A DNA stretch of 32,000 nucleotides from an uncultured Opitutales bacterium (GTDB lineage Bacteria; Verrucomicrobiota; Verrucomicrobiia; Opitutales; Intestinicryptomonadaceae): the NCBI GenBank assembly GCA_934613415.1, contig CAKTSY010000006.1, positions 1-32,000 on the forward strand, written 5' to 3'. Below, piece by piece: positions 993-24,228 of the stretch. The notes below the pieces were generated by a model. It was not told where the DNA came from and did no database searches. It saw nothing but the letters and a program-made list of their open reading frames with translations. Numbering within the stretch: the first letter of the stretch is position 1; every line of letters begins with the position of its first letter. Both the position numbers and the translations under genes were made by a program.

Positions 993-1047
993 ATTCTTGT
1001 CTTAGTTTGGTTTATACGTTAATAACAATCGCATCTGCAGTTCGATA

Positions 1048-1075
1048 TTCATAGTATTCAGAATACGACTGTCAA
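1048..1075 (-). promoter_or_regulatory. Sigma70-like promoter reading toward the repeat-protein gene: TTGACA (1075-1070), 16-nt spacer, TATGAA (1053-1048).
   Basis: The -35 hexamer spans the junction between the spacer (TT) and the IR arm (GACA). The equivalent junction facing the recombinase gene reads TAGACA. An A/T-rich tract lies upstream on the minus strand. Confidence 0.35.
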
Positions 1076-1226
1076 GTCAAAATAATTCAAAACCTTTGTA
1101 ATCTATTCTGTTGGGTATTTTTCCGTTTTGGAGACTGCGCCTGCCGCGCTGCGCCGTTTTTTATATATTCTGATTTTTACGGCGTTACGCTTTTGGTTTA
1201 GACAGTCGTATTCTGAATACTATGAA
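1048..1226. repeat. Perfect 26-bp inverted-repeat pair (1048-1073 ttcatagtattcagaatacgactgtc; 1201-1226 exact reverse complement) bracketing a 127-bp AT-rich spacer. Candidate invertible DNA switch.
   Basis: Read directly from the sequence; all 26 positions pair. Each arm contains the near-palindrome GTATTC-A-GAATAC. The pair lies between divergent gene starts at 992 (-) and 1222 (+). Confidence 0.85.
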
Positions 1227-2316
1227 CACTATACTTAATTCGGCTAAGGAAGTTTTGGGCGGGGCGGGAATTTCGGTTCTCGATTCCGCAAGATATATCA
1301 GAAACATTTTGGACTCGAAGCCTGCCGGCGGCAAATTGACCGACGCGCAGTTCGTTTTGAAGGTAATTGACGTAGGGTTGCGGCATATCCGCACAAAAGA
1401 AATGTCCCTTGCCGACGGATTTGCTATATATTTAAAGAGCAAGCAGCATTTGCGCCCAGATTCCATAAGGGATATTCGCTATTTGGGCAATCGGCTACTA
1501 AAAGCAAAGTCCGAATTTGGCAAACGCAATTTTTCGGAGCTAAGCGTTTCTGAATGCGAAGAATGGCTGAATGCGGCGTTTCATACGGATAATCAATTCA
1601 AGCGAAGCGCGAATGAGATTTCGCCACAGGCGAAAGACCCGAAGGGCGAGACGGCTCACGAAGTGAGTGCGAGTCAATTCAACAAGGGGCGGACAATGCT
1701 GCACGGATTGTTTGAATTCGCCATTCGGCGCGAGTGGTGCGACAAAAACCCGATAAAGCGAATCGAACGCAAGAAAGTAATCGAAAAGGAAATCCTGCCT
1801 CTGAAACTATCCGAAACAAAGCGGTTAATCACAACCGCCCAACGCGAAAGCCCGAATTGCGCAGTAGCCGCCGCGCTATTGGTATACACGGGAATCCGCC
1901 CGCGCGAAGTTAGGCGGCTTACTTGGCGCGACATCGACACCGAAGAAAAGACAATCACAGTCCGCTCGCAATGCTCCAAGACAGGCGGTGTCCGACAAGT
2001 GGAAATTCCGCCCGTCTTGAACAGACTTTTGATAGCGCATTCAAGCGAATTAAAAGAGGGAAAAATCTGCCCGACAGACTGGCAGCGCCGATGGCGCAAA
2101 ATTAGGGACAACTCTGGCTTTCGCGGACGCTGGGTTCAGGACGTTCTTCGCCACACATACGCGAGTTTCCACGCAAAACGCTACACCGATTTGCCTAGAC
2201 TGCAGCTAAATATGGGGCACCGCGATTTGTCTCTTTTGCGCAGCCGCTACATCAATATGCACGGTATTTCCCGCGCCGACGCAAAAAGCTTCTTCGAACC
2301 GAAGAATGTAAAATAA
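1222..2316 (+). CDS. Tyrosine site-specific recombinase (phage-integrase family).
   Basis: Catalytic-domain motifs are present: LLVYTGIRPREVRRLTWRDID (Arg box I) and LRHTYASFHAKR...LQLNMGHRDLSLLRSRYINM (HxxR ... H ... Y). The ATG at 1222 lies inside the right IR arm. An alternative start at Met61 (1402), MSLADGFAIYLKSK, looks like the natural start of a core-binding domain. Confidence 0.85.
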   Translation: MNTILNSAKEVLGGAGISVLDSARYIRNILDSKPAGGKLTDAQFVLKVIDVGLRHIRTKEMSLADGFAIYLKSKQHLRPDSIRDIRYLGNRLLKAKSEFGKRNFSELSVSECEEWLNAAFHTDNQFKRSANEISPQAKDPKGETAHEVSASQFNKGRTMLHGLFEFAIRREWCDKNPIKRIERKKVIEKEILPLKLSETKRLITTAQRESPNCAVAAALLVYTGIRPREVRRLTWRDIDTEEKTITVRSQCSKTGGVRQVEIPPVLNRLLIAHSSELKEGKICPTDWQRRWRKIRDNSGFRGRWVQDVLRHTYASFHAKRYTDLPRLQLNMGHRDLSLLRSRYINMHGISRADAKSFFEPKNVK

Positions 2317-2375
2317 CACTTCTATAACGTCGCCGATTTGCACAGGGCAAGGTCTTGTAGACGGCGGCGGACAAG

Positions 2376-2414
2376 TTTCGGCTAATCGGGAATTGTATTC
2401 CGTTTTAGCCGAAA
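2376..2414. terminator. Extended stem-loop between the convergent recombinase and relaxase genes. A 10-bp perfect outer stem (tttcggctaa / ttagccgaaa) encloses an inner ggaat/attcc stem.
   Basis: Seen in sequence. There is no flanking U-tract, so its role as an intrinsic terminator is uncertain; it could instead be a protein-binding site. Confidence 0.35.
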
Positions 2415-2477
2415 ATGCTTGGTTATGCTTGTAGGGACTTGGGACATAATGTGTGCCCGTATCGGGTATTTTTCCGC

Positions 2478-4715
2478 TTACAAATCGATCTCACAGCTGA
2501 TTGTTTGGTGGGGTGGTTCTTTTTGTGGTTCTGGGGTGGTTGGAGGTATGGACTTGGTCGGAGCGGGATTGTCTGTAGGGCGAGTATTCTGTTGCGGCTT
2601 GGGTGAGTTCGTTGCGGGCGGTTTGGTAATTTTTGGTCGCGGGTTAAGTGTCGGGCGGACGTATTGGGGATGTGGTTGAAGAGGCTGTTTTTGTTGTGGG
2701 GTTCGGTGTGCGGGTATTGCGGAGGCTGTTTTGCGGGGTTGCGCTCTATTATATATAGAGGGGCTGGTGGAAATTGGTCTTGGTATTTGGGGATTGTTTT
2801 GCGTGGGCGATGAACTTTTATTCATTTCCGCGGGACGGTTTACAATCTGCCGTGCTCGCGTGGAGGGTAGTTGCGAACGTTGTGGCTGAGTATGGAGTTG
2901 GGACGACGGTGGTTGTTGCTTTGACGGTGCATCAGGTTGCGATGGGGGTGTATGATTGAGGCTCGATGTTGGTATTACTACCTTTCTTAGTTGAGATTGT
3001 GCCTCAATCGGTATAAGAGTCGTCTTTGTCTGGATTGGTGTTTTTGTCTTATCGGAGTAGGAGAAATACGGTAACGGATGATGTTGCGATTGTGTCCGTT
3101 GGGGTATCGGGATTGTCTGGTCGGATTGCGTTCTTGCCGAAGTTTGCGGGAGGGTATTTGTGATTTGGTTTTTTACTACAATTTTCTTCAACCCGAACGA
3201 GCGTAGTAGTGGCATCGCGTAGTCTTCTTTGTGGGGCAATGTTGTTTGATCGTTCGAAATTAAAACAAGTTTTGAGCGTGTCGCGTTTACGGCTTTTATG
3301 AGTTTAAGGAAGTAGTCACAGCCGATAAAATCTGCGTTATCTAATATAAAGATTGAAGGAGGTCTGACTTTGCCAATTCCCGCAAAGGGTGTCGGATTAA
3401 CATTAAAATTCTTGCGAATACGCTTGCGACTGGCGTTTAAATACACAATCGGTGCCTTGTTGGCACCTACGAAGTTGTTCAAGTTTTTAGTGAACGAGGC
3501 TCCGCCGTCATCGTTAACTTCAAAGACGACACTCTGTTCGGAATACATATTTTGGTATCGGGCATCGGGGATTTCAATATCGGAAGAAAACGAGTCAAAC
3601 GTGCGCGCTGAGGCTTTGGCAAATTCTTTTCGTAATTCTGCGTGCACAGGCGGTTGATTGTCCTCCACCCCGCATAATCGGGCAGCCCAGTTTGCGATTT
3701 TGCCAAAAAGGTTTTGGGGCGTTTGTGGGACTTTCTGTTTGGTATTAATACCCTTCGGCGATGGATTCTTTTGCGGAGTTTTACCAATCATTCCTCGGGC
3801 AACCTTTGTTATCTGTTTGCCGCAGGCAATTTTTATCTCTTTACGAATGCACCTTAACGTCGCTTTTGTCATACTGTCTAGACGTTTGGGTTCTTTAAAG
3901 AGATTGGCGATTCTTGCGATTGCCCGTTTACCGTATTTCTTATTCGGATTTTTTGCCTGTAATTCTTTTGCTTTGCTTTTTATCTGCTTGCTCCGCTTGC
4001 TGAACCTATCGCACAACGACTGTGGAATTCCCGCGATGAACACTTCACCTTTGGCGTCCAACGACGCTTTTATTCCCTTGTCTTTCAGGCGTTCAACAAG
4101 CTTTTGGCGGTAAATCAATGTTGCTACTTGCGACTCTTTGTAGATTTCCAGCGGATCCAAGGCTTTGTATTTTTGCTCGTTTTGGTCGTAAGTTAGATTG
4201 AAAATTTCGTAATGGCTGTGCAGTTGCGGGTCGTCCGCTCTGCTTAAAAGGTGCGTGATTTTCACGCCAAGAAAACTTCCTGTAAAGACTGAATATTTTG
4301 CCCCGTTCTTCCGAATTCTCACCTTTGCCTTTTCCTCAATCCAGCGCATGGCTTCATCCGCCGCCTCTTCGTGGATTGCCATAAAATCATTGTCTTTGCC
4401 GAGCATGTAAACGGCAAGGATGGAAAACGCTTTCGGTGCTGACATGCATGCGCTGAAAATTTGGCGTTTGCATTCCCGCGGTCTTAGCTTTGCTTTCGTG
4501 AGTGGGTGTTTGTTGTCTAAAACTGACTTGAAAATATCCGAGGGAGCAAGTTTCTCTATGCCCAGCTTCCACGCAAGTCTGCCGAAAAGCTTCGCGTTTG
4601 TATTACTATTTTTGTCGTAGCAAAAGTAGCCCAGCAGGTCGTTTTCAAAATATTGAAGTACCTGTGCTTTATTCATGAACTTGGAAATTGTTAACATGCC
4701 TGCCAGTTTAGGCAT
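2478..4715 (-). CDS. TrwC/TraI (MobF-family) conjugative relaxase with a degenerate helicase-like middle region and a Pro/Gln/Thr/Ser-rich C-terminal tail.
   Basis: The N-terminal domain has a Tyr-containing start (QYFENDLLGYFCY) and the MobF histidine triad context HLLSRADDPQLHSHYEIFN. The middle has Walker-B-like IFILDNADFIG and KLVLISND, but no P-loop is visible. The last ~230 aa are low complexity. An alternative start is Met7 at 4697 (MLTISKF...). Confidence 0.8.
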   Translation of the reverse strand: MPKLAGMLTISKFMNKAQVLQYFENDLLGYFCYDKNSNTNAKLFGRLAWKLGIEKLAPSDIFKSVLDNKHPLTKAKLRPRECKRQIFSACMSAPKAFSILAVYMLGKDNDFMAIHEEAADEAMRWIEEKAKVRIRKNGAKYSVFTGSFLGVKITHLLSRADDPQLHSHYEIFNLTYDQNEQKYKALDPLEIYKESQVATLIYRQKLVERLKDKGIKASLDAKGEVFIAGIPQSLCDRFSKRSKQIKSKAKELQAKNPNKKYGKRAIARIANLFKEPKRLDSMTKATLRCIRKEIKIACGKQITKVARGMIGKTPQKNPSPKGINTKQKVPQTPQNLFGKIANWAARLCGVEDNQPPVHAELRKEFAKASARTFDSFSSDIEIPDARYQNMYSEQSVVFEVNDDGGASFTKNLNNFVGANKAPIVYLNASRKRIRKNFNVNPTPFAGIGKVRPPSIFILDNADFIGCDYFLKLIKAVNATRSKLVLISNDQTTLPHKEDYAMPLLRSFGLKKIVVKNQITNTLPQTSARTQSDQTIPIPQRTQSQHHPLPYFSYSDKTKTPIQTKTTLIPIEAQSQLRKVVIPTSSLNHTPPSQPDAPSKQQPPSSQLHTQPQRSQLPSTRARQIVNRPAEMNKSSSPTQNNPQIPRPISTSPSIYNRAQPRKTASAIPAHRTPQQKQPLQPHPQYVRPTLNPRPKITKPPATNSPKPQQNTRPTDNPAPTKSIPPTTPEPQKEPPHQTISCEIDL

Positions 4716-4742
4716 TTCATTTCAAAACAAACTTTGCGGCAC

Positions 4743-4886
4743 AGACGGCTACGCCGTCTTAAATATCATGGGGTTTTTCTCGCGGGATATGCGTTGCATT
4801 TCCCGCTCGATGGGGACGCTACGCGTCTATAAATTATCTGCTTGTTTCGGAGCGCTACACTAACCCTTCCGACTTCCGTCGGAGGG
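4743..4886. promoter_or_regulatory. Cluster of short GC-rich hairpins and palindromes in the relaxase-proximal divergent intergenic region. Candidate oriT or operator sites.
   Basis: Four elements seen in sequence: AGACGGC-TAC-GCCGTCT (4743-4759); GACGC-TAC-GCGTC (4815-4827); GCGGGA-N13-TCCCGC (4782-4806); and a 9-bp stem CCTTCCGAC-ttcc-GTCGGAGGG (4865-4886). Confidence 0.3.
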
Positions 4887-5046
4887 ACAACCCCACAGTT
4901 CATTGCCGATTCAGCTCGGCTAAATCAGGGCGAAATCCTCATCTCCTGAACCCTTCATGCCCTTCCGTTTCACCGTCCACGCTCTGCCGATTTTACCGAG
5001 CGATTGTTCCACTAACTACCCCCCCCTGAAACTTTTTTTGGGAATT

Positions 5047-5076
5047 TTCGCAAAGCCGAAGCATTTTTCCTATACT
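5047..5076 (+). promoter_or_regulatory. Putative promoter of the 355-aa gene: TTCGCA, 18-nt spacer, TATACT.
   Basis: The -10-like TATACT ends 7 nt before the ATG at 5084 and there is no Shine-Dalgarno sequence. This suggests a leaderless or near-leaderless transcript. Confidence 0.3.
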
Positions 5077-5083
5077 GTAGCCT

Positions 5084-6151
5084 ATGAATAAAAAAACAAA
5101 TACCCGAAAAGGTATCCCGCAACAAATTGCGGGAAAAGTTGAAAACATAAAACACGTGATTAAGGAAACCCGCAATCACGTCTTAAACGCGGAGAAATTC
5201 GTAGAGAAAGGGAAAAGTTACATCTTTGACTTGTGCGTAGACCTTGTCTTGCTTGCCCGTTCGGTGAAGCAAAATCCCACATATGGGTGGTTGTGCGATG
5301 AGGTGTTTTGTCTTGATCAGAAAGAGGGCTGTCCCGTTAAGCCGGACATATACAAAATCGCAAAGTCGCTCGGAGAAGTCTGTGTTAAGTTCCAATCGCC
5401 GCAAAAGGAAAACTTGCGCAAAGTTGGATGTTCGCGTTGGCAGACAATACGAAAGGCATTGGCTCGCTATCCAAAAGACAAGCGCGATGAGATTTTGAAT
5501 TCGTTGGCATCAGCCTCTTTTGACGAATGCGGGGAGGCATTGACACAAAAAGTCAACGCTACCGCAGCCGCTGCAAATATACAACCCGTGCAAAAGGAGA
5601 AAAGTGAACGGCAAAAGGTGAGGGATTCTTTTTACGCAACTCTAAAAAATATAACGGACGATACCCAGTTAAAGGCTTTGGAGCTGTATTTAGCTAACTT
5701 CAATGCCCCAAAGGTTGCGATGCAAAACGATACTGCCGAGGAGGCGGAAGAAGCCCTCGTTGCGCAACCGCAAAAATCGTCGCCCGAAAAATCGGCTACG
5801 CCGAATCAAATGCCAACGGAGGAAGACTTGGGTATTTCAATACCAAACCCCCAGGGCGAAACCTCTACCGCAAATACCACCGCCGCTAATACCATTCAGC
5901 TGCAGGGAAACCCAACGAACCCTTTCCCTATTCTTGACGGGCTTAGCAACAGTGAAAAGGCGAAAAAGATTCGGGTGTGGCTAACGAAACTTGAAGGGCG
6001 CGAAGCATACAAGCGAGATGCAAACAGCTACGAAATGAAAATCGCGTGGGTCGTCGTCAAAGGCAGGATACCAGCGCAAGAAGTTGCCGCTCTTAAAACC
6101 CACGAAGATCTTCGCAAATTGGCGGAAAATTTTTATCCTGAAAAACTTTAG
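5084..6151 (+). CDS. Hypothetical protein of the mobile module (355 aa) with a central acidic/Pro/Thr-rich linker.
   Basis: Long ORF with a clean ATG. I recognise no family motif. Its position next to the relaxase is compatible with a relaxosome accessory or maintenance role, which is speculation. Confidence 0.6.
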   Translation: MNKKTNTRKGIPQQIAGKVENIKHVIKETRNHVLNAEKFVEKGKSYIFDLCVDLVLLARSVKQNPTYGWLCDEVFCLDQKEGCPVKPDIYKIAKSLGEVCVKFQSPQKENLRKVGCSRWQTIRKALARYPKDKRDEILNSLASASFDECGEALTQKVNATAAAANIQPVQKEKSERQKVRDSFYATLKNITDDTQLKALELYLANFNAPKVAMQNDTAEEAEEALVAQPQKSSPEKSATPNQMPTEEDLGISIPNPQGETSTANTTAANTIQLQGNPTNPFPILDGLSNSEKAKKIRVWLTKLEGREAYKRDANSYEMKIAWVVVKGRIPAQEVAALKTHEDLRKLAENFYPEKL

Positions 6152-6153
6152 AC

Positions 6154-6411
6154 GTGAGTTTTTCAAAATTACATTGCAATTCGGCTGACTCGGATAAAGT
6201 CCGAGTTGTTGCCGAATTGTTCGCGCGAGCCGCCCGCAGAGTGGACGGACGCAAAATATTAACAGCCACAAAGCAAATAGAGCAGAAAGTACAATATCGC
6301 GGACAGACAACGGAAATTGCAAAATCGTTGAGAGGTTCGCGTTCAACGCGGTACAGAAACGCCCGAAAGATAATTAACGGCGTATCGCAAGGAGGAATTG
6401 CAAATGGGTGA
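6154..6411 (+). CDS. Small putative helix-turn-helix protein (85 aa, GTG start), possibly a recombination directionality or regulatory factor.
   Basis: The C-terminal half, GQTTEIAKSLRGSRSTRYRNARKI, resembles a resolvase-type HTH. Its stop overlaps the recombinase start (ATGGGTGA at 6404-6411), which implies translational coupling. The start codon is uncertain. Confidence 0.4.
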   Translation: MSFSKLHCNSADSDKVRVVAELFARAARRVDGRKILTATKQIEQKVQYRGQTTEIAKSLRGSRSTRYRNARKIINGVSQGGIANG

Positions 6412-8425
6412 TTTTCTCCGAAAAATGATTCTGCAAGAGCGCAAGAATAAAGATACGAACGCACAAATAAATGCGCTTGTGTATTTGCGCGTGTCTACCA
6501 ACAGGCAGGCGGCAAAAGAATTTTCATCCATTGACGCCCAACGCAAGATGGTTGACGAATATGCTTCGCGGAATCCGAAAATATGCATTGTTGGCGAATA
6601 TTCTGACGCAAAATCGGCAAAAGACACCAACCGGCGAGGCTTTCGCGAAATGCTTGCGCGCATCGAACGGGGAGGAATTGACGCTGTAATTAGCTATAAA
6701 AATGACAGAGTTTGCCGCAACAAGGCTAATTTTGCGGAACTAAAACAGTTTCTAAACGAACACAATGTCAGACTTATTTACAGCAATGATTTTTCCTCCG
6801 ACGGTAGCCCGACGGGTGATTTTGCCGAAGACATTACGGTAAATCTTTCCGAAATGGAGCGGCGGAAAATTTCTGAGCGTACCGCGCACAAATATTTGCA
6901 GAATCTAAAACGCGGGTTCCGTTCTGGTGGGGTTGCTCCGTTTGGTTACAAAACGGGGCGAACGGCTTGCTCGATAGAAATAGACAGTGCGAATGCGGAG
7001 ATTGTCCGTAAAATTTACTCAGAATTCCTATCCGGCGAAAAGCCGTCGGAAATTTCCGCACACCTTACAAAACGCTACGGGCAAATACCGTTGCGGAAAA
7101 CGCGTTCGGGACGACAACTTGGCGGCAAGCCGTTCAACGAAAACTTTGTCCGCAAGGTGTTGGCAAATCCGATGTATTCGGGCTATAACTACATCGGCCT
7201 CGGGGCGGAAAATTCGCGGCCAAAATACGAATTGTTCAAAGGTGTTCATTCGCCGATTGTCAAAAAGTCGGAATGGGACAAAGTTCAGGAAAGCCTCTAT
7301 TGTGTTCCCAAACAAAGAAAGAGCGTGCCCATAATTTCGAGCGACGAATATTTGCTGAAAGGCTATCTGCGATGCGTGTGCGGCAGTATGATGACGACGG
7401 CGTATACTCTTCGTAAAGGGCGAAAATACCCGTATTACATTTGCTCGCGCCGCAACAAGGAACATTCGGCGTGCGAATGCAATGAAGGTGGAATTGCTCT
7501 TTCCGTGCTAGAGGGGGTTGTCTTTTCGGCGATAGGTTATTTTATGCGAGAGAAACTCTCTGCGATTTCCCGCAACGGAGAATATCGCGAAGAACTGGAA
7601 CGTAAAATAGCGGCATTGAGGACAGCCCGCGAGCGGTTGCGCAAAAAAGTTGCCTGTGCCAACGACGAATATTTATCCTGTTCGGACGAACTGATGAAAG
7701 CTCATTTTAAGGAATCGCTTCGGATGCTTGTTGAAGAGGAACGAAATTTGGAGCGAAAGTTGGGCGATACCGTAGAAGAGCAAAAGTTGCTCTCCGCGGT
7801 AGACACTGCAAACCAATCGCGGACTGTATCGGCAAATATTCGCGATATGGATTTGCTGCAAAACAATCTTACTCCCGAAGAAAAGAGAACCATTCTTGAA
7901 AACGCGATAGAACGTCTTGTCATTTCGTCCGTGTCGCATAAAAGCCGTTTTTGCCGCGAAATGTCTTTGAAGGTTTTTCCTACACACGAGCTTAACGGGG
8001 TAATTCCCAAGTGTGATTTGCGTTTTATCGTGGATACATCAAGAGGCAAGTCGCTTTGGAAAATAATTAGCCCTTTTGAAATGCCGTGCAGTGCATTGAT
8101 GGAAATGGAGAAAGTTCCGAAGTCCAAAACCGCCCGCCATTTTATTTGCGATGTTTTGGATTGGCGGCGCGAAATTGAAACGCGGAAGATTACCGCAACG
8201 CAGTTTTGTGCCGAGCATGGTATTAAAAAGTCGTTGTTTAGCCTAAAATACGGATTGCTCAAAAAGCTTTCGCCCGAAGTTGTGGAATTTTTAGCTAAAA
8301 TGATTCTTCCCGCGATACCCCAAAGAATGAGCTATCGCAAAACATCGGAGCTTGCAAAATTGCCGCAAAACGAGCAGATGGCAGAACTTCGCAGGGTTTG
8401 TGGAAATTTGAATGTGTCAGTATAG
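6404..8425 (+). CDS. Large serine recombinase: resolvase catalytic domain, recombinase domain and zinc ribbon, with a C-terminal ParB-like HTH extension.
   Basis: Motifs: YLRVSTNRQ (catalytic Ser), GIDAVISYKNDRVCRN, GGVAPFGYK, and Cys-rich CVCGSMMT...YYICSRR...HSACEC. The AAGGAGG RBS at 6389-6395 favours the ATG at 6404 over the TTG at 6398 given in the ORF track. Confidence 0.9.
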   Translation: MGDFLRKMILQERKNKDTNAQINALVYLRVSTNRQAAKEFSSIDAQRKMVDEYASRNPKICIVGEYSDAKSAKDTNRRGFREMLARIERGGIDAVISYKNDRVCRNKANFAELKQFLNEHNVRLIYSNDFSSDGSPTGDFAEDITVNLSEMERRKISERTAHKYLQNLKRGFRSGGVAPFGYKTGRTACSIEIDSANAEIVRKIYSEFLSGEKPSEISAHLTKRYGQIPLRKTRSGRQLGGKPFNENFVRKVLANPMYSGYNYIGLGAENSRPKYELFKGVHSPIVKKSEWDKVQESLYCVPKQRKSVPIISSDEYLLKGYLRCVCGSMMTTAYTLRKGRKYPYYICSRRNKEHSACECNEGGIALSVLEGVVFSAIGYFMREKLSAISRNGEYREELERKIAALRTARERLRKKVACANDEYLSCSDELMKAHFKESLRMLVEEERNLERKLGDTVEEQKLLSAVDTANQSRTVSANIRDMDLLQNNLTPEEKRTILENAIERLVISSVSHKSRFCREMSLKVFPTHELNGVIPKCDLRFIVDTSRGKSLWKIISPFEMPCSALMEMEKVPKSKTARHFICDVLDWRREIETRKITATQFCAEHGIKKSLFSLKYGLLKKLSPEVVEFLAKMILPAIPQRMSYRKTSELAKLPQNEQMAELRRVCGNLNVSV

Positions 8426-8728: not shown

Positions 8729-8760
8729 AACCCTCTGGCGAAGTCGTGGAATTGAACGGC
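8729..8760 (-). pseudogene. Degenerate tRNA 3'-end-like fragment, possibly an att or integration scar.
   Basis: The 12-mer aaccctctggcg (8729-8740) is identical to 8863-8874, which is the trailer plus CCA end of tRNA-Glu. It is followed by gtggaattgaac, compared with gtggggattcgaac in the real T-arm. I could not fold a complete cloverleaf. Confidence 0.3.
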
Positions 8761-8828
8761 GCTGCGCTTGCCCTGCGGGTTTTTGCTATCGCAAAAATTC
8801 CATCCCCAAGCGAACGCCAATCGGGCAC

Positions 8829-8857
8829 AAAAAAAGACAGGCTTTGCAACCTGTCTT
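8829..8857 (-). terminator. Rho-independent terminator downstream of tRNA-Glu.
   Basis: Stem aagacagg/cctgtctt (8834-8841 / 8850-8857), followed on the minus strand by a 7-nt U-tract (8829-8835). Confidence 0.7.
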
Positions 8858-8869
8858 AATAAAACCCTC

Positions 8870-8946
8870 TGGCGTCCCTGTGGGGATTCGAACCCCAGTC
8901 GTAAGAATGAAAATCTTATGTCCTAACCGGGCTAGACGACAGGGAC
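8870..8946 (-). tRNA. tRNA-Glu (anticodon UUC), with CCA encoded.
   Basis: Manual cloverleaf: GTCCCTG TC GTCT-AGCCCGGTTA-GGAC A TAAGA-TTTTCAT-TCTTA CGAC TGGGG-TTCGAAT-CCCCA CAGGGAC G CCA. Length 77 nt; all stems pair. Confidence 0.9.
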
Positions 8947-21748: not shown

Positions 21749-24133
21749 TTATTTTCTTCTGCGATAGATTGCAAACGCCAGAGCCAAAGCTCCGAATATT
21801 GCCGCCCATGTAGACGGTTCTGGAACTTCGAATGTGGCGGTAAAGGTGTTGTCGCCGCCGCCGAATGTTACTTTGTAGCCGTTATAGTCTATAAAAGTAC
21901 CTTTTATGGTCTCCAACGAAGCATTGTATTTTGAAGGATCGTCGAAGAATATCAATTCGTAGGTTTGACCGTCTTCGTAATTGGCAAAGGCAAAATCGCT
22001 TGCCAAAATGTCGCCCATAAGCGATGCGCTGTCGGAGAAAATCAAGCTAGAACCCGAAGCCAAATCAAATTCTAATTTGCCGCTTGCAAAGTCTACAACC
22101 GAATATCCTCCAAAAGTCGCGGCACCTTTAATGGCAAAAACGCCGCCCGATATATTAACTTTGCTTGCAAATGATTCTGCTGTAGATTTGTTGAACGTCA
22201 TATTGCCGTCTATCTGCAGGCGGCCTGCAACGTTCACGGCAAGCTCTTTTGTAGCCCCAGCATTCAGCGCGTCTTGCAAATTGCCTTTTATAACAAGTGC
22301 GCCGCCACTGTTTACATTTAGCACACCGCCTGTCGAAAGCGTTATTGTACCCGTAGCGGTTGTGGAATTATTGATATTAAGCGTGCCCGCAGAACCTACG
22401 TTTAAATAGCTGCTTGAATTAAAAGTTGAGCCTTCATTTAAGGTAAGCGAACCCGTGTTGATGGAAATTTGGGATTTTTGATTCCAAGTTGCGCCGCTTT
22501 CCAAAACAACATTGCCGCCGTTTAAGTGGTCTATGGCATTTTGGTTAAAGGTGCCGTATATTGTGTGGTTGCCCGCATTAAAGCGCACTGTTGTCCCGCC
22601 ATTTTGCGTCATTGTGCCGCGCACTGTAAGCGACGAGCCCGAACCGAACAAAACTGTGCCCGCGCTCTTTATGCCGTCTACAGTTTCGGTTCCAACCAAA
22701 AAGTTTGCGCCCTCTTCTATATTAACCGCCGTTTTATCGAATGTTACGCCGCCTGTTACATTAAGATTGCCGCCGTTTTTAACGTTCAGCGTGGAATTGT
22801 TCGAAAACTTTATTGTGTTAAAGTCTTTGTCTTGGTCGGTGGTTACACCGTCTCTGTCTTGAACCGCCTTTTCTTTGCCGCCGCTCTTTAAAGCAAGTGT
22901 GCCATACACGTCTACAGTGCCGCCGCTTGAAGCAAACGAGCTTTTTGCCGTGGCTTTTCCGTCGGCAATAGTTTCGTCTACAATGGCAGTGCCCTTAACG
23001 GTAAAGTTGCCCTGCCCAATAGAAAGCAAACCTTTGCTTTCAAAAAGCGCGTCTTCTTCTACCGTATAATTAAATGTTGTAGAAACTGCCCCAAAAGAAA
23101 ATGTGCCGTTGTTTGTAAACGAGCCAAACTGGCTGTGGTTGTCGCCGCCCGCAAATTTAATAGTGCCGTTATTTATAAAGCTGCCGCTTTTTGTTAAAAT
23201 AAAGTTGGCGGCTTTTTCAACAACGGTTGTTCCGTCATTTTCGAAAGTGCCCACCAAATTTTGGTTGTAGCCGTTTAGGTTTACGGTAGCCCCGGCCTCG
23301 TTAACAATGTCGCCAATATATACATTGGGCATATCGTACGACGCCGAATTGTAGTTTGCGCTGCCCAAAGTTAAAGTGCTTTTATTTTGCGACTTTTTGC
23401 CTTCGGTTACCGAATATGTGCCGTCTTCGTTTTTGGTTACGCCAAGCCTTGTTTCCTGTATATAGTTGTAGATACGGAAAGCGTTTGCATTTATAACAAC
23501 TTGGCCAATATCTACCAAAGCCCTGGTGCCGTATTTAAGCGAGCCGTTTGTAACGGCATCGGCCATCCCGATAATTTCAAGATTTTTTGCGCCGTTAAGG
23601 GTTACCGTGTCGCTTACGGTAAAGTTGTTTCTGGTAATATCTTCCGACCTATTGTCTGCCGTAGTAAGCGTAAAGGTTGCGCTGGTAAACATTGCATCGG
23701 TGAAATTCTGCGTAAGGTTTGCAACCGAAAACGAGTTGCCGCCATTGTGCATAGAATTTACCATTTTCCTAACGCCGCGGCCTTCCTCCATTTGCTCTAA
23801 CTGCAAGAAGTCGTAGTTATTGTTGCCAGCCTTTTCCTGCCAAACGGTTTCGCTTGTGTAATAGTCGTTAAAAAATACGTTTGCAGTAGAATCTGTTCTT
23901 GGAGATTTGCTTGCCCTAACTGCGGTTGCAACATCGCTTGTGGTATACCAGTTGTTTGCGTCAGCCGCGTAGTTGCTATTGTTGCCCGAAGCCCTGTCGC
24001 CCGTTTTTTCCGAAGCAGGCAGGTTGTCCCAAGCCGGAGTCGTAAGCCCGAACATTAAATAATAGTCAGTGCCGAACGCCATAGAGGCGGCTCCTATAAA
24101 CAAACTTGCCAAAAATGCTTTTGTAGAATTCAT
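21749..24133 (-). CDS. PEP-CTERM-anchored secreted protein with autotransporter-associated beta-strand repeats.
   Basis: The ATG at 24133 has an AGGAG RBS 8 nt upstream and gives the signal peptide MNSTKAFLASLFIGAASMAFG. Many repeats of the form G..T/N..G.L.V / FxNNGT. C-terminal VPEPSTWAAIFGALALAFAIYRRRK is a PEP-CTERM sorting signal. Confidence 0.8.
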   Translation of the reverse strand: MNSTKAFLASLFIGAASMAFGTDYYLMFGLTTPAWDNLPASEKTGDRASGNNSNYAADANNWYTTSDVATAVRASKSPRTDSTANVFFNDYYTSETVWQEKAGNNNYDFLQLEQMEEGRGVRKMVNSMHNGGNSFSVANLTQNFTDAMFTSATFTLTTADNRSEDITRNNFTVSDTVTLNGAKNLEIIGMADAVTNGSLKYGTRALVDIGQVVINANAFRIYNYIQETRLGVTKNEDGTYSVTEGKKSQNKSTLTLGSANYNSASYDMPNVYIGDIVNEAGATVNLNGYNQNLVGTFENDGTTVVEKAANFILTKSGSFINNGTIKFAGGDNHSQFGSFTNNGTFSFGAVSTTFNYTVEEDALFESKGLLSIGQGNFTVKGTAIVDETIADGKATAKSSFASSGGTVDVYGTLALKSGGKEKAVQDRDGVTTDQDKDFNTIKFSNNSTLNVKNGGNLNVTGGVTFDKTAVNIEEGANFLVGTETVDGIKSAGTVLFGSGSSLTVRGTMTQNGGTTVRFNAGNHTIYGTFNQNAIDHLNGGNVVLESGATWNQKSQISINTGSLTLNEGSTFNSSSYLNVGSAGTLNINNSTTATGTITLSTGGVLNVNSGGALVIKGNLQDALNAGATKELAVNVAGRLQIDGNMTFNKSTAESFASKVNISGGVFAIKGAATFGGYSVVDFASGKLEFDLASGSSLIFSDSASLMGDILASDFAFANYEDGQTYELIFFDDPSKYNASLETIKGTFIDYNGYKVTFGGGDNTFTATFEVPEPSTWAAIFGALALAFAIYRRRK

Positions 24134-24228
24134 ATAAAACACTCCTTTTATTTTTGTATTGCGCGGGCAGACTAACTTAGCAACACTCAACTAGTCAATA
24201 CTATTTTTAAGAAAACCTTCAACTTACA

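Follow-up and report, generated by a model that had tools for sequence, protein, structure and literature searches.

A probable site-specific inversion switch beside a giant autotransporter gene in gut Opitutales, and the family of recombinase-paired sites around it

Introduction

The kind of switch considered here is already known from E. coli, Bacteroides and Akkermansia. The E. coli fimS switch is a segment of 314 bp with 9-bp repeats, with the whole promoter inside the segment; two recombinases, FimB and FimE, invert it, helped by IHF and Lrp. In Bacteroides fragilis, work attributed to Weinacht et al. in 2004 reportedly found invertible promoters that are flipped by adjacent tyrosine recombinases of the Tsr family.

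Nearer in phylogeny are the invertons of Akkermansia. Dozens of them share one motif ('group 138' in PMC11892184), and PMC13343947, citing Jiang et al. 2019, gives the inverton repeat motif of Akkermansia muciniphila as CGGATT..AATCCG. Genes for PEP-CTERM and autotransporter proteins are over-represented among the neighbours of this group, one member of which has repeats of 17 bp around ~157 bp and two autotransporter genes close by (PMC11892184). Group 138 is not among the inverton groups tied to a nearby invertase gene (PMC11892184), and neither that paper nor PMC13343947 names the invertase of the Akkermansia invertons. Invertase genes that lie near invertons are generally oriented beyond regulation by the switch promoter (PMC11892184). 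In the dataset of PMC10028968, the Verrucomicrobia, represented by Akkermansia only, have the most intergenic invertons per genome.

We describe here a locus of an uncultured gut Opitutales bacterium, at positions 1048-1226 of the window, which is the whole stretch of 32,000 nucleotides that was analysed. The locus is very likely a site-specific inversion switch (inverton), and from its setting it probably turns a giant autotransporter surface protein on or off. With the Akkermansia invertons it shares the phylum Verrucomicrobiota, the gut habitat, short repeats with a palindromic xxATT..AATxx core, the size class of ~150-160 bp, PEP-CTERM/autotransporter targets and a promoter motif inside the segment. 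It differs from them in its site, GTATTnnnAATAC, which was found in the window and in 91/91 scored loci and is unlike the Akkermansia motif of PMC13343947; a further difference is that every switch is abutted by a recombinase gene of its own and that the centres vary by locus. The invertons of PMC11892184 differ further, since here the 5' end of the recombinase gene touches the switch, in an orientation open to regulation by its promoter.

The Bacteroides Tsr switches are alike in having a local tyrosine recombinase, short inverted repeats and a promoter segment for outer-surface proteins of a gut commensal, but the phylum, the repeat motif and the promoter type (-33/-7 in Bacteroides) are different. 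The fimS switch, whose target is an adhesin operon, is alike in placing a tyrosine recombinase beside a small invertible promoter segment. Unlike fimS, the loci described here measure 127-165 bp and have one recombinase, and their -35 element lies 3 nt from the crossover dyad with a -10 element inferred in the arm or flank. The initial annotation of this DNA had likened the overall logic to fimS and Bacteroides, and the comparison holds for the layout, namely a local tyrosine recombinase and a small promoter-bearing segment. Its other remark, that it was aware of no described example for a PEP-CTERM/PATR-type protein, is outdated in view of the published Akkermansia invertons beside PEP-CTERM and autotransporter genes (PMC11892184, PMC13343947). 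A literature search combining phase variation and Opitutales found no paper, and no description of this switch family was found in searchable papers. Judged by its different site and its strictly cis-paired recombinase, it is a new family within the known inverton kind.

Results and Discussion

The repeat, its core and its flanks

The features of the locus are collected in Table 1. The two arms, TTCATAGTATTCAGAATACGACTGTC and GACAGTCGTATTCTGAATACTATGAA, are perfect 26-bp reverse complements of each other with 127 bp between them, as had been noted from the letters alone, and when mismatches are allowed the repeat reaches 35 nt at 89%. In the 32 kb the 26-bp arm has only these two copies, even at 3 mismatches, and 100 shuffles returned 0. 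The inner dyad GTATTNNNAATAC, which reads GTATTC-A/T-GAATAC in each arm, occurs in the window only at its two positions within the arms, where 0.05 occurrences were expected. The open reading frames agree with the earlier placement of the repeat between the ATG of a surface protein (992, minus strand) and the recombinase frame that opens at 1222.

Table 1. Features of the switch region, in window coordinates.
Feature	Position or sequence	Strand	Basis or remark
Target gene, 5' part, 330 codons	3..992	-	translation; the window edge truncates the gene
Outer flank, probable 5' leader of the autotransporter mRNA	993..1047	-	ATG 61 nt past the dyad
Left arm, far from the recombinase	1048..1073		dyad GTATTCAGAATAC at 1054-1066, presumed recombinase core site
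Candidate -10 hexamers in the left arm	TATGAA 1053->1048, TACTAT 1056->1051	-	read from the sequence
Invertible core, 127 bp	1074..1200		reversed in L046-L048
Core, left end	TTGACT/TTGACA 1080->1070 and A/T-rich tract	-	points to the autotransporter gene
Core, right end	TAGACA 1199-1204 only	+	points to the recombinase gene
Right arm	1201..1226		dyad GTATTCTGAATAC at 1208-1220
Recombinase start codon	1222-1224	+	within the right arm, one nt past the dyad
Tyrosine recombinase, 364 aa, presumed invertase of the switch	1222..2316	+	PF00589, E = 2e-14

Searches for RNA features gave nothing of note. The fold of the leader RNA (993..1047) is unremarkable (z = -2.0), a terminator scan of 900-1400 found none, the GC-rich tract of the core being no recognisable intrinsic terminator, and an Rfam search returned no RNA family in the switch region and just two tRNAs elsewhere.

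A family of loci with matched centres

Loci of the same type were drawn from species-representative genomes, metagenomes and exact-protein look-ups. We examined 95 loci; both arms lay on the contig in 91, and 65 were left after redundancy had been removed. Close relatives of the recombinase gene were found only in gut Opitutales genomes, and the identical gene is present in metagenome assemblies of the ENA, of which three derive from Hadza gut samples. Two cultured strains also have family switches, Intestinicryptomonas porci Cla-KB-P66 at L014 and L025 and Puniceicoccaceae Marseille-Q1082 at L019 and L027. The recombinases of the family loci are 53-96% identical, and a genome has two or three paralogues.

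The dyad GTATTnnnAATAC stands 1-2 nt ahead of the recombinase ATG in all of the 91 gut Opitutales loci scored (at most one mismatch permitted), a position that was itself required by the locus selection rule. A second, inverted copy lies 153-189 bp upstream of the recombinase-proximal one in these loci. In 64 of the 65 non-redundant loci the central trinucleotides of the two arms are reverse complements of each other; 15 different ones occur, never in direct orientation. The earlier suggestion that the dyad is of the kind found in recombinase core sites holds up, as it is this dyad that all family members conserve, with centres that co-vary between the arms. Crossover regions of tyrosine recombinases require homology, and inverted centres that co-vary are what this requirement predicts. 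From the same requirement, locus-specific centres would also insulate the paralogues from one another.

The single exception to the matched centres is the P0044 locus, with one mismatch in most of its assemblies. At this locus the centre is GCA in place of the expected ACA in L029, L031-L037 and L053, L030 and L038 have the matched ACA, and all P0044 assemblies are in the majority orientation. A mutation of the crossover region may have locked this switch.

The distance from centre to centre falls into classes of 153-154, 162-169, 172-180 and 189 bp (65 loci). Steps of ~11 bp are expected if the two sites must share helical faces in order to synapse across a short loop, and the spacing suggests such helical phasing and a looped synapse. 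The core between the dyads is 140-176 bp long across the family. Cores cannot be aligned beyond close relatives, and the alignment of the window core to distant loci fails.

Both orientations occur between collinear flanks

The evidence for both orientations is a comparison between assemblies. The orthologous locus of a sister strain is represented by three assemblies (L046, L047 and L048), with the same autotransporter gene on the left, DUF481/LUD/Ham1 on the right and a recombinase (P0005) that is 96% identical. Against the window, the 179 bp of arms plus core match in reverse at 99.4% over 1048-1226 (BLAST of L046), and both flanks of L046 match forward at 96-97%. The core of L046-L048 agrees with that of the window at 140/141 positions as the reverse complement, and the 25-nt flanks at 25/25.

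Three other family loci repeat this picture. The core of L044 is the reverse complement of that of L039 at 154/154 positions, the recombinase protein and the flanks being identical, and it is also reversed relative to L040-L043 and L045, with identical 25-nt flanks. For L096 the figures are 160/162 against L084 (flanks 22/25 on the left and 25/25 on the right) and 158/162 against L089, and for L117 against L111 they are 162/165 with identical 25-nt flanks. An assembler would not collapse arms of 13-26 bp, which fall below its k-mer length, and so the flips have to come from the reads themselves. The initial annotation had suggested that the segment can invert and had proposed a comparison of orthologous loci in related genomes; the flipped orientation found in the sister strain, together with the opposite orientations between collinear flanks at the three other loci, bears this out.

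These flips also bear on the reading that the repeat is a pair of operators, for a dimeric regulator or for autoregulation of the recombinase, and that the flips are evolutionary accidents. Each arm is itself palindromic, as operators are, one of the sites overlaps the recombinase start, and the window allele occurs in a single orientation in 10/10 assemblies. However, clean flips are seen at four independent loci, including one of 154/154 positions with an identical recombinase protein, strictly inverted co-varying centres (64/65 loci) are not required of operators, and the neighbouring gene encodes a tyrosine recombinase and not a repressor. We consider the operator reading highly improbable, and its form without inversion was rejected, since it accounts for neither the flips nor the co-varying inverted centres.

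The inversion reading is preferred for the family, and the window allele itself could be fixed or locked in one orientation, because the 10 assemblies with the identical recombinase (L001-L010) are all in the window's orientation, with no orientation heterogeneity among these 10 contigs. It was also observed that contigs L022, L044, L051, L065 and L123 end inside the switch or a few tens of bases away from it. Such contig ends are the expected behaviour of an assembler if both orientations coexist in a sample.

Promoter elements and the direction of the switch

Core orientation was assigned from the position of TTGACA. The 65 loci share the consensus ...ATTTTnGAAATTTTnnnTTGACAnTn at one core end, immediately ahead of the dyad. 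The six positions of TTGACA are kept in 65, 63, 63, 62, 62 and 54 of the 65 loci, at a constant 3 nt from the dyad and with an A/T-rich tract ahead. This end adjoins the recombinase in 85/91 assemblies and the far arm in 6/91, the window included. In the majority orientation, therefore, TTGACA faces the recombinase gene, whose ATG is too near for a normal mRNA from that promoter.

With the -35 element 3 nt away from a dyad of 13 bp, a spacer of 16-18 nt would bring the -10 element to the first bases of the outer flank. On the target side the consensus of this flank is TATAnnC (T 38, A 48, T 47 and A 48 of 65), and A2 and T6 stand together in 42/65 loci in one of three registers; on the recombinase side it reads nATGGAC, and A2 and T6 are never together. 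Since nAT(A/G) is common to three of the four dyad flanks, the signal is partly ambiguous, and part of it may reflect binding of the recombinase instead of a -10 element.

In the window there are three options for the -10 element: TATGAA at 16 nt from TTGACA, a spacing at which it is without the final T; TACTAT at 18 nt from TTGACT (minus strand); and TATTCT inside the dyad. The first of these, TTGACA 1075->1070 (minus strand), 16 nt and TATGAA 1053->1048, is present as the initial annotation had read it, and so is TAGACA on the recombinase side. The core end that would direct transcription faces the autotransporter gene in the window, the inferred ON state, and faces away from it in L046-L048, the inferred OFF state. 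The ON reading of the window orientation fits the family pattern.

The mechanism that we propose is conventional in kind and has testable specifics, and the element looks functional. The adjacent tyrosine recombinase would bind the dyad GTATT-NNN-AATAC in each arm and a few flanking bases, and strand exchange within or around the asymmetric centre would invert the 127-bp core. One end of the core would supply an A/T-rich UP-like tract and the TTGACA -35 element, 3 nt from the dyad, and the matching -10 element would be in the arm or the outer flank, so that the crossover site would fall within the promoter spacer. When the TTGACA end faces left, as in the window, the autotransporter gene would have an outward promoter and would be ON. 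When it faces right, the gene would lose the -35 element and the UP-like tract and would be OFF.

The same outward promoter might alternately drive a leaderless recombinase mRNA or the surface-protein gene. The supply of recombinase would then depend on orientation, and the recombinase may be the main regulated gene. This reading draws on the recombinase ATG, which is always 1-2 nt past the dyad, where a promoter of the inverton could regulate it, and on a second register, in which TTGnAA ~13 nt upstream of TTGACA is followed after 17-18 nt by TATTnT inside the dyad; in a matrix reading this register would place the transcription start at the A of the recombinase ATG. Read outward, the middle base of the centre is T in 52/65 loci, which completes TATTnT. 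Many target ORFs, too, begin 15-18 nt from the arm without a Shine-Dalgarno sequence, from which leaderless or near-leaderless target mRNAs seem to be in use. Against it, TTGnAA is much less conserved than TTGACA, and, were the recombinase made in the majority orientation alone, that orientation should be depleted, yet it is the one of those 85 assemblies. We regard alternate driving of the two genes as a tentative idea that is unlikely to be correct, and retain the simple ON/OFF mechanism above as the working model.

The recombinase

The recombinase frame matches the Phage_integrase model of Pfam (Table 1). In an alignment of 19 family members, R226, K253, R310, H333 and Y343 are invariant, and with this Arg/Lys/Arg/His/Tyr catalytic set kept, the enzyme looks catalytically competent. 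Where XerA has its second-box His, the aligned residue here is Asp307, invariant in the family (QDVLRHT, not HxLRHT), and such an Asp is uncommon in active tyrosine recombinases. Conservation in the family alignment begins at residue 1, so the ATG that abuts the dyad is the true start. A 27-aa insertion, residues 125-151 in the window, is found in a patchy subset of the family.

The nearest solved relative is XerA (5hxy, E = 1.4e-8), to which the protein is only distantly similar, and its scores against the NCBIfam Xer equivalogs are far under the cut-offs. A Xer/dif site was rejected as an explanation on account of these scores and of the two inverted sites. The strict 1:1 pairing of recombinase and site across the 91 loci scored favours a cognate relation, and we infer that the adjacent recombinase catalyses the inversion.

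The target gene and the cargo of other loci

The target ORF, read from the ATG at 992 on the minus strand, begins with MKKTKNKKRGISFSVPLLFALAANVYA followed by DG, which looks like a Sec signal peptide. Its full-length orthologues have 2436-2515 aa and carry PF03797, and its DNA is 97% identical to that of L046. By these orthologues the target is a very large autotransporter. It had been annotated as a surface repeat protein, adhesin-like and of the PEP-CTERM/PATR type. The signal peptide and the surface location stand, and the protein is an autotransporter by its PF03797 orthologues; the PEP-CTERM/PATR part falls away. No Pfam or NCBIfam model for PATR, PEP-CTERM or adhesin matched in the N-terminal 330 aa of the target or in 1257 aa of an orthologue.

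Across the family, an outward ORF of at least 100 aa lies past the far arm in 59/63 loci, with its start at a median of 39 nt. Many of these targets are surface proteins, among them autotransporters, PEP-CTERM proteins and lipoproteins. Genes of other kinds were also seen to face the switch. TIR-domain targets of the CAP12/Pycsar type occur at L039, L061, L069, L109, L110 and L128 (one above the Pfam cut-off, the rest weak), Mrr-type restriction endonucleases at L112 and L113, and family-25 LPS glycosyltransferases (GT25) at L054 and L111; small P-loop proteins are found among the switch-facing genes of other family loci. With this non-surface cargo, defence and LPS genes of gut Opitutales may be phase-variable too.

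Elsewhere in the window, at 21749-24190 (minus strand), a separate protein of 813 aa matches PEP-CTERM weakly, with a score under the Pfam cut-off. Neither a recombinase nor a GTATTnnnAATAC dyad was found near it, and its gene is therefore not under such a switch.

The neighbouring mobilisable element and the tRNA locus

Past the recombinase gene, the window contains a TrwC relaxase (2478-4715, minus strand), a 355-aa gene of no assigned function and a large serine recombinase (6398-8425), and farther downstream housekeeping genes and tRNA-Glu. We observed that a mobilisable element of ~6.1 kb (2298-8425) directly follows the tyrosine recombinase gene and replaces its last codons, with a junction near 2296-2300, at the 3' end of that gene and not at the repeats. 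The element is also present at L029-L038, L053, L073, L077 and L082, with a remnant in L012. Four other recombinase paralogues are followed by this relaxase module too, at 84-89% identity, and the junction is identical each time (...AAGCTTCTTCGA/AC). L046 is an empty site, with 89 bp that are missing from the window. Since the junction is the same at each paralogue, the conserved 3' end of the recombinase genes looks like the attachment site of the element.

The insertion alters the C-terminus of the recombinase and adds a convergent relaxase gene. The window allele, which has the element downstream of it, shows the minority, inferred-ON orientation in all 10 independent assemblies, and the three assemblies of the sister allele, without the inserted element, are all in the opposite orientation to the window.

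The tyrosine recombinase could on this arrangement be the integrase of the element at 2298-8425, and the repeat an element end, an att/oriT feature or a MITE. The relaxase gene after the recombinase gene, in the window and at four other paralogue loci, is in its favour. But L046-L048 keep the switch, the recombinase, the autotransporter and DUF481 without a relaxase or serine recombinase, and the relaxase is present in only 15/118 fetched loci outside the window's own allele (L011-L128). The repeat unit has no further copy in the window, cores vary from locus to locus, and repeats inverted around a gene-free 127-165 bp are unlike what att sites show. We give this reading next to no credence. 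An integrase of the adjacent element was rejected, since the switch and the recombinase occur without the element in L046-L048, and so was a MITE or insertion sequence, the unit being unique in the window and always recombinase-linked, with cores unrelated between loci. The scatter of such a unit through unrelated contexts, which the initial annotation had named as the sign of a MITE, was not found, the unit always being attached to a recombinase gene. The inversion switch is thus kept as the explanation of the repeat.

A further observation concerns a 122-bp segment (8741-8862) by tRNA-Glu (8870-8946, minus strand). L046 lacks it; in the window a ~12-bp direct repeat, CAACCCTCTGGCG, brackets it where the tRNA-Glu gene has its 3' end, and it may be the remnant of a tRNA-integrated element.

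The family as a whole can be read as a self-referential toggle with four linked properties. First, one strong promoter with the crossover in its spacer may drive by turns a leaderless recombinase mRNA and the cargo gene, and so wire the switching rate to orientation. Second, its own central trinucleotide may insulate each paralogue. Third, the cargo may include putative anti-phage genes (CAP12-type TIR, Mrr) and LPS glycosyltransferase genes. Fourth, a mobilisable element may have adopted the 3' end of the recombinase gene as its landing site. Taken jointly, the four make a conjecture that we hold to be doubtful.

Significance

Gut Opitutales are common in non-industrialised human guts and, to our knowledge, almost uncultured; the window allele was found in Hadza samples. 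Our analysis suggests that these bacteria would vary giant autotransporters, PEP-CTERM proteins and lipoproteins by DNA inversion, and that LPS glycosyltransferases and some defence-like genes would vary likewise. If the joint toggle reading is true, gut Opitutales would phase-vary their immunity as well as their surface. Contigs break or differ in orientation at these switches, and an inference of expression from the orientation in one assembly can mislead.

The family also provides a set of rules, namely that each switch has one recombinase, that the 13-bp dyad has a centre particular to its locus, that the two sites seem to be spaced in helical phase and that the -35 element lies 3 nt from the site of crossover. 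The assignment of recombinase to site is unambiguous here, which is apparently not established for the Akkermansia invertons, and the family would therefore be a good model for site specificity and the coding of orientation in the Verrucomicrobiota.
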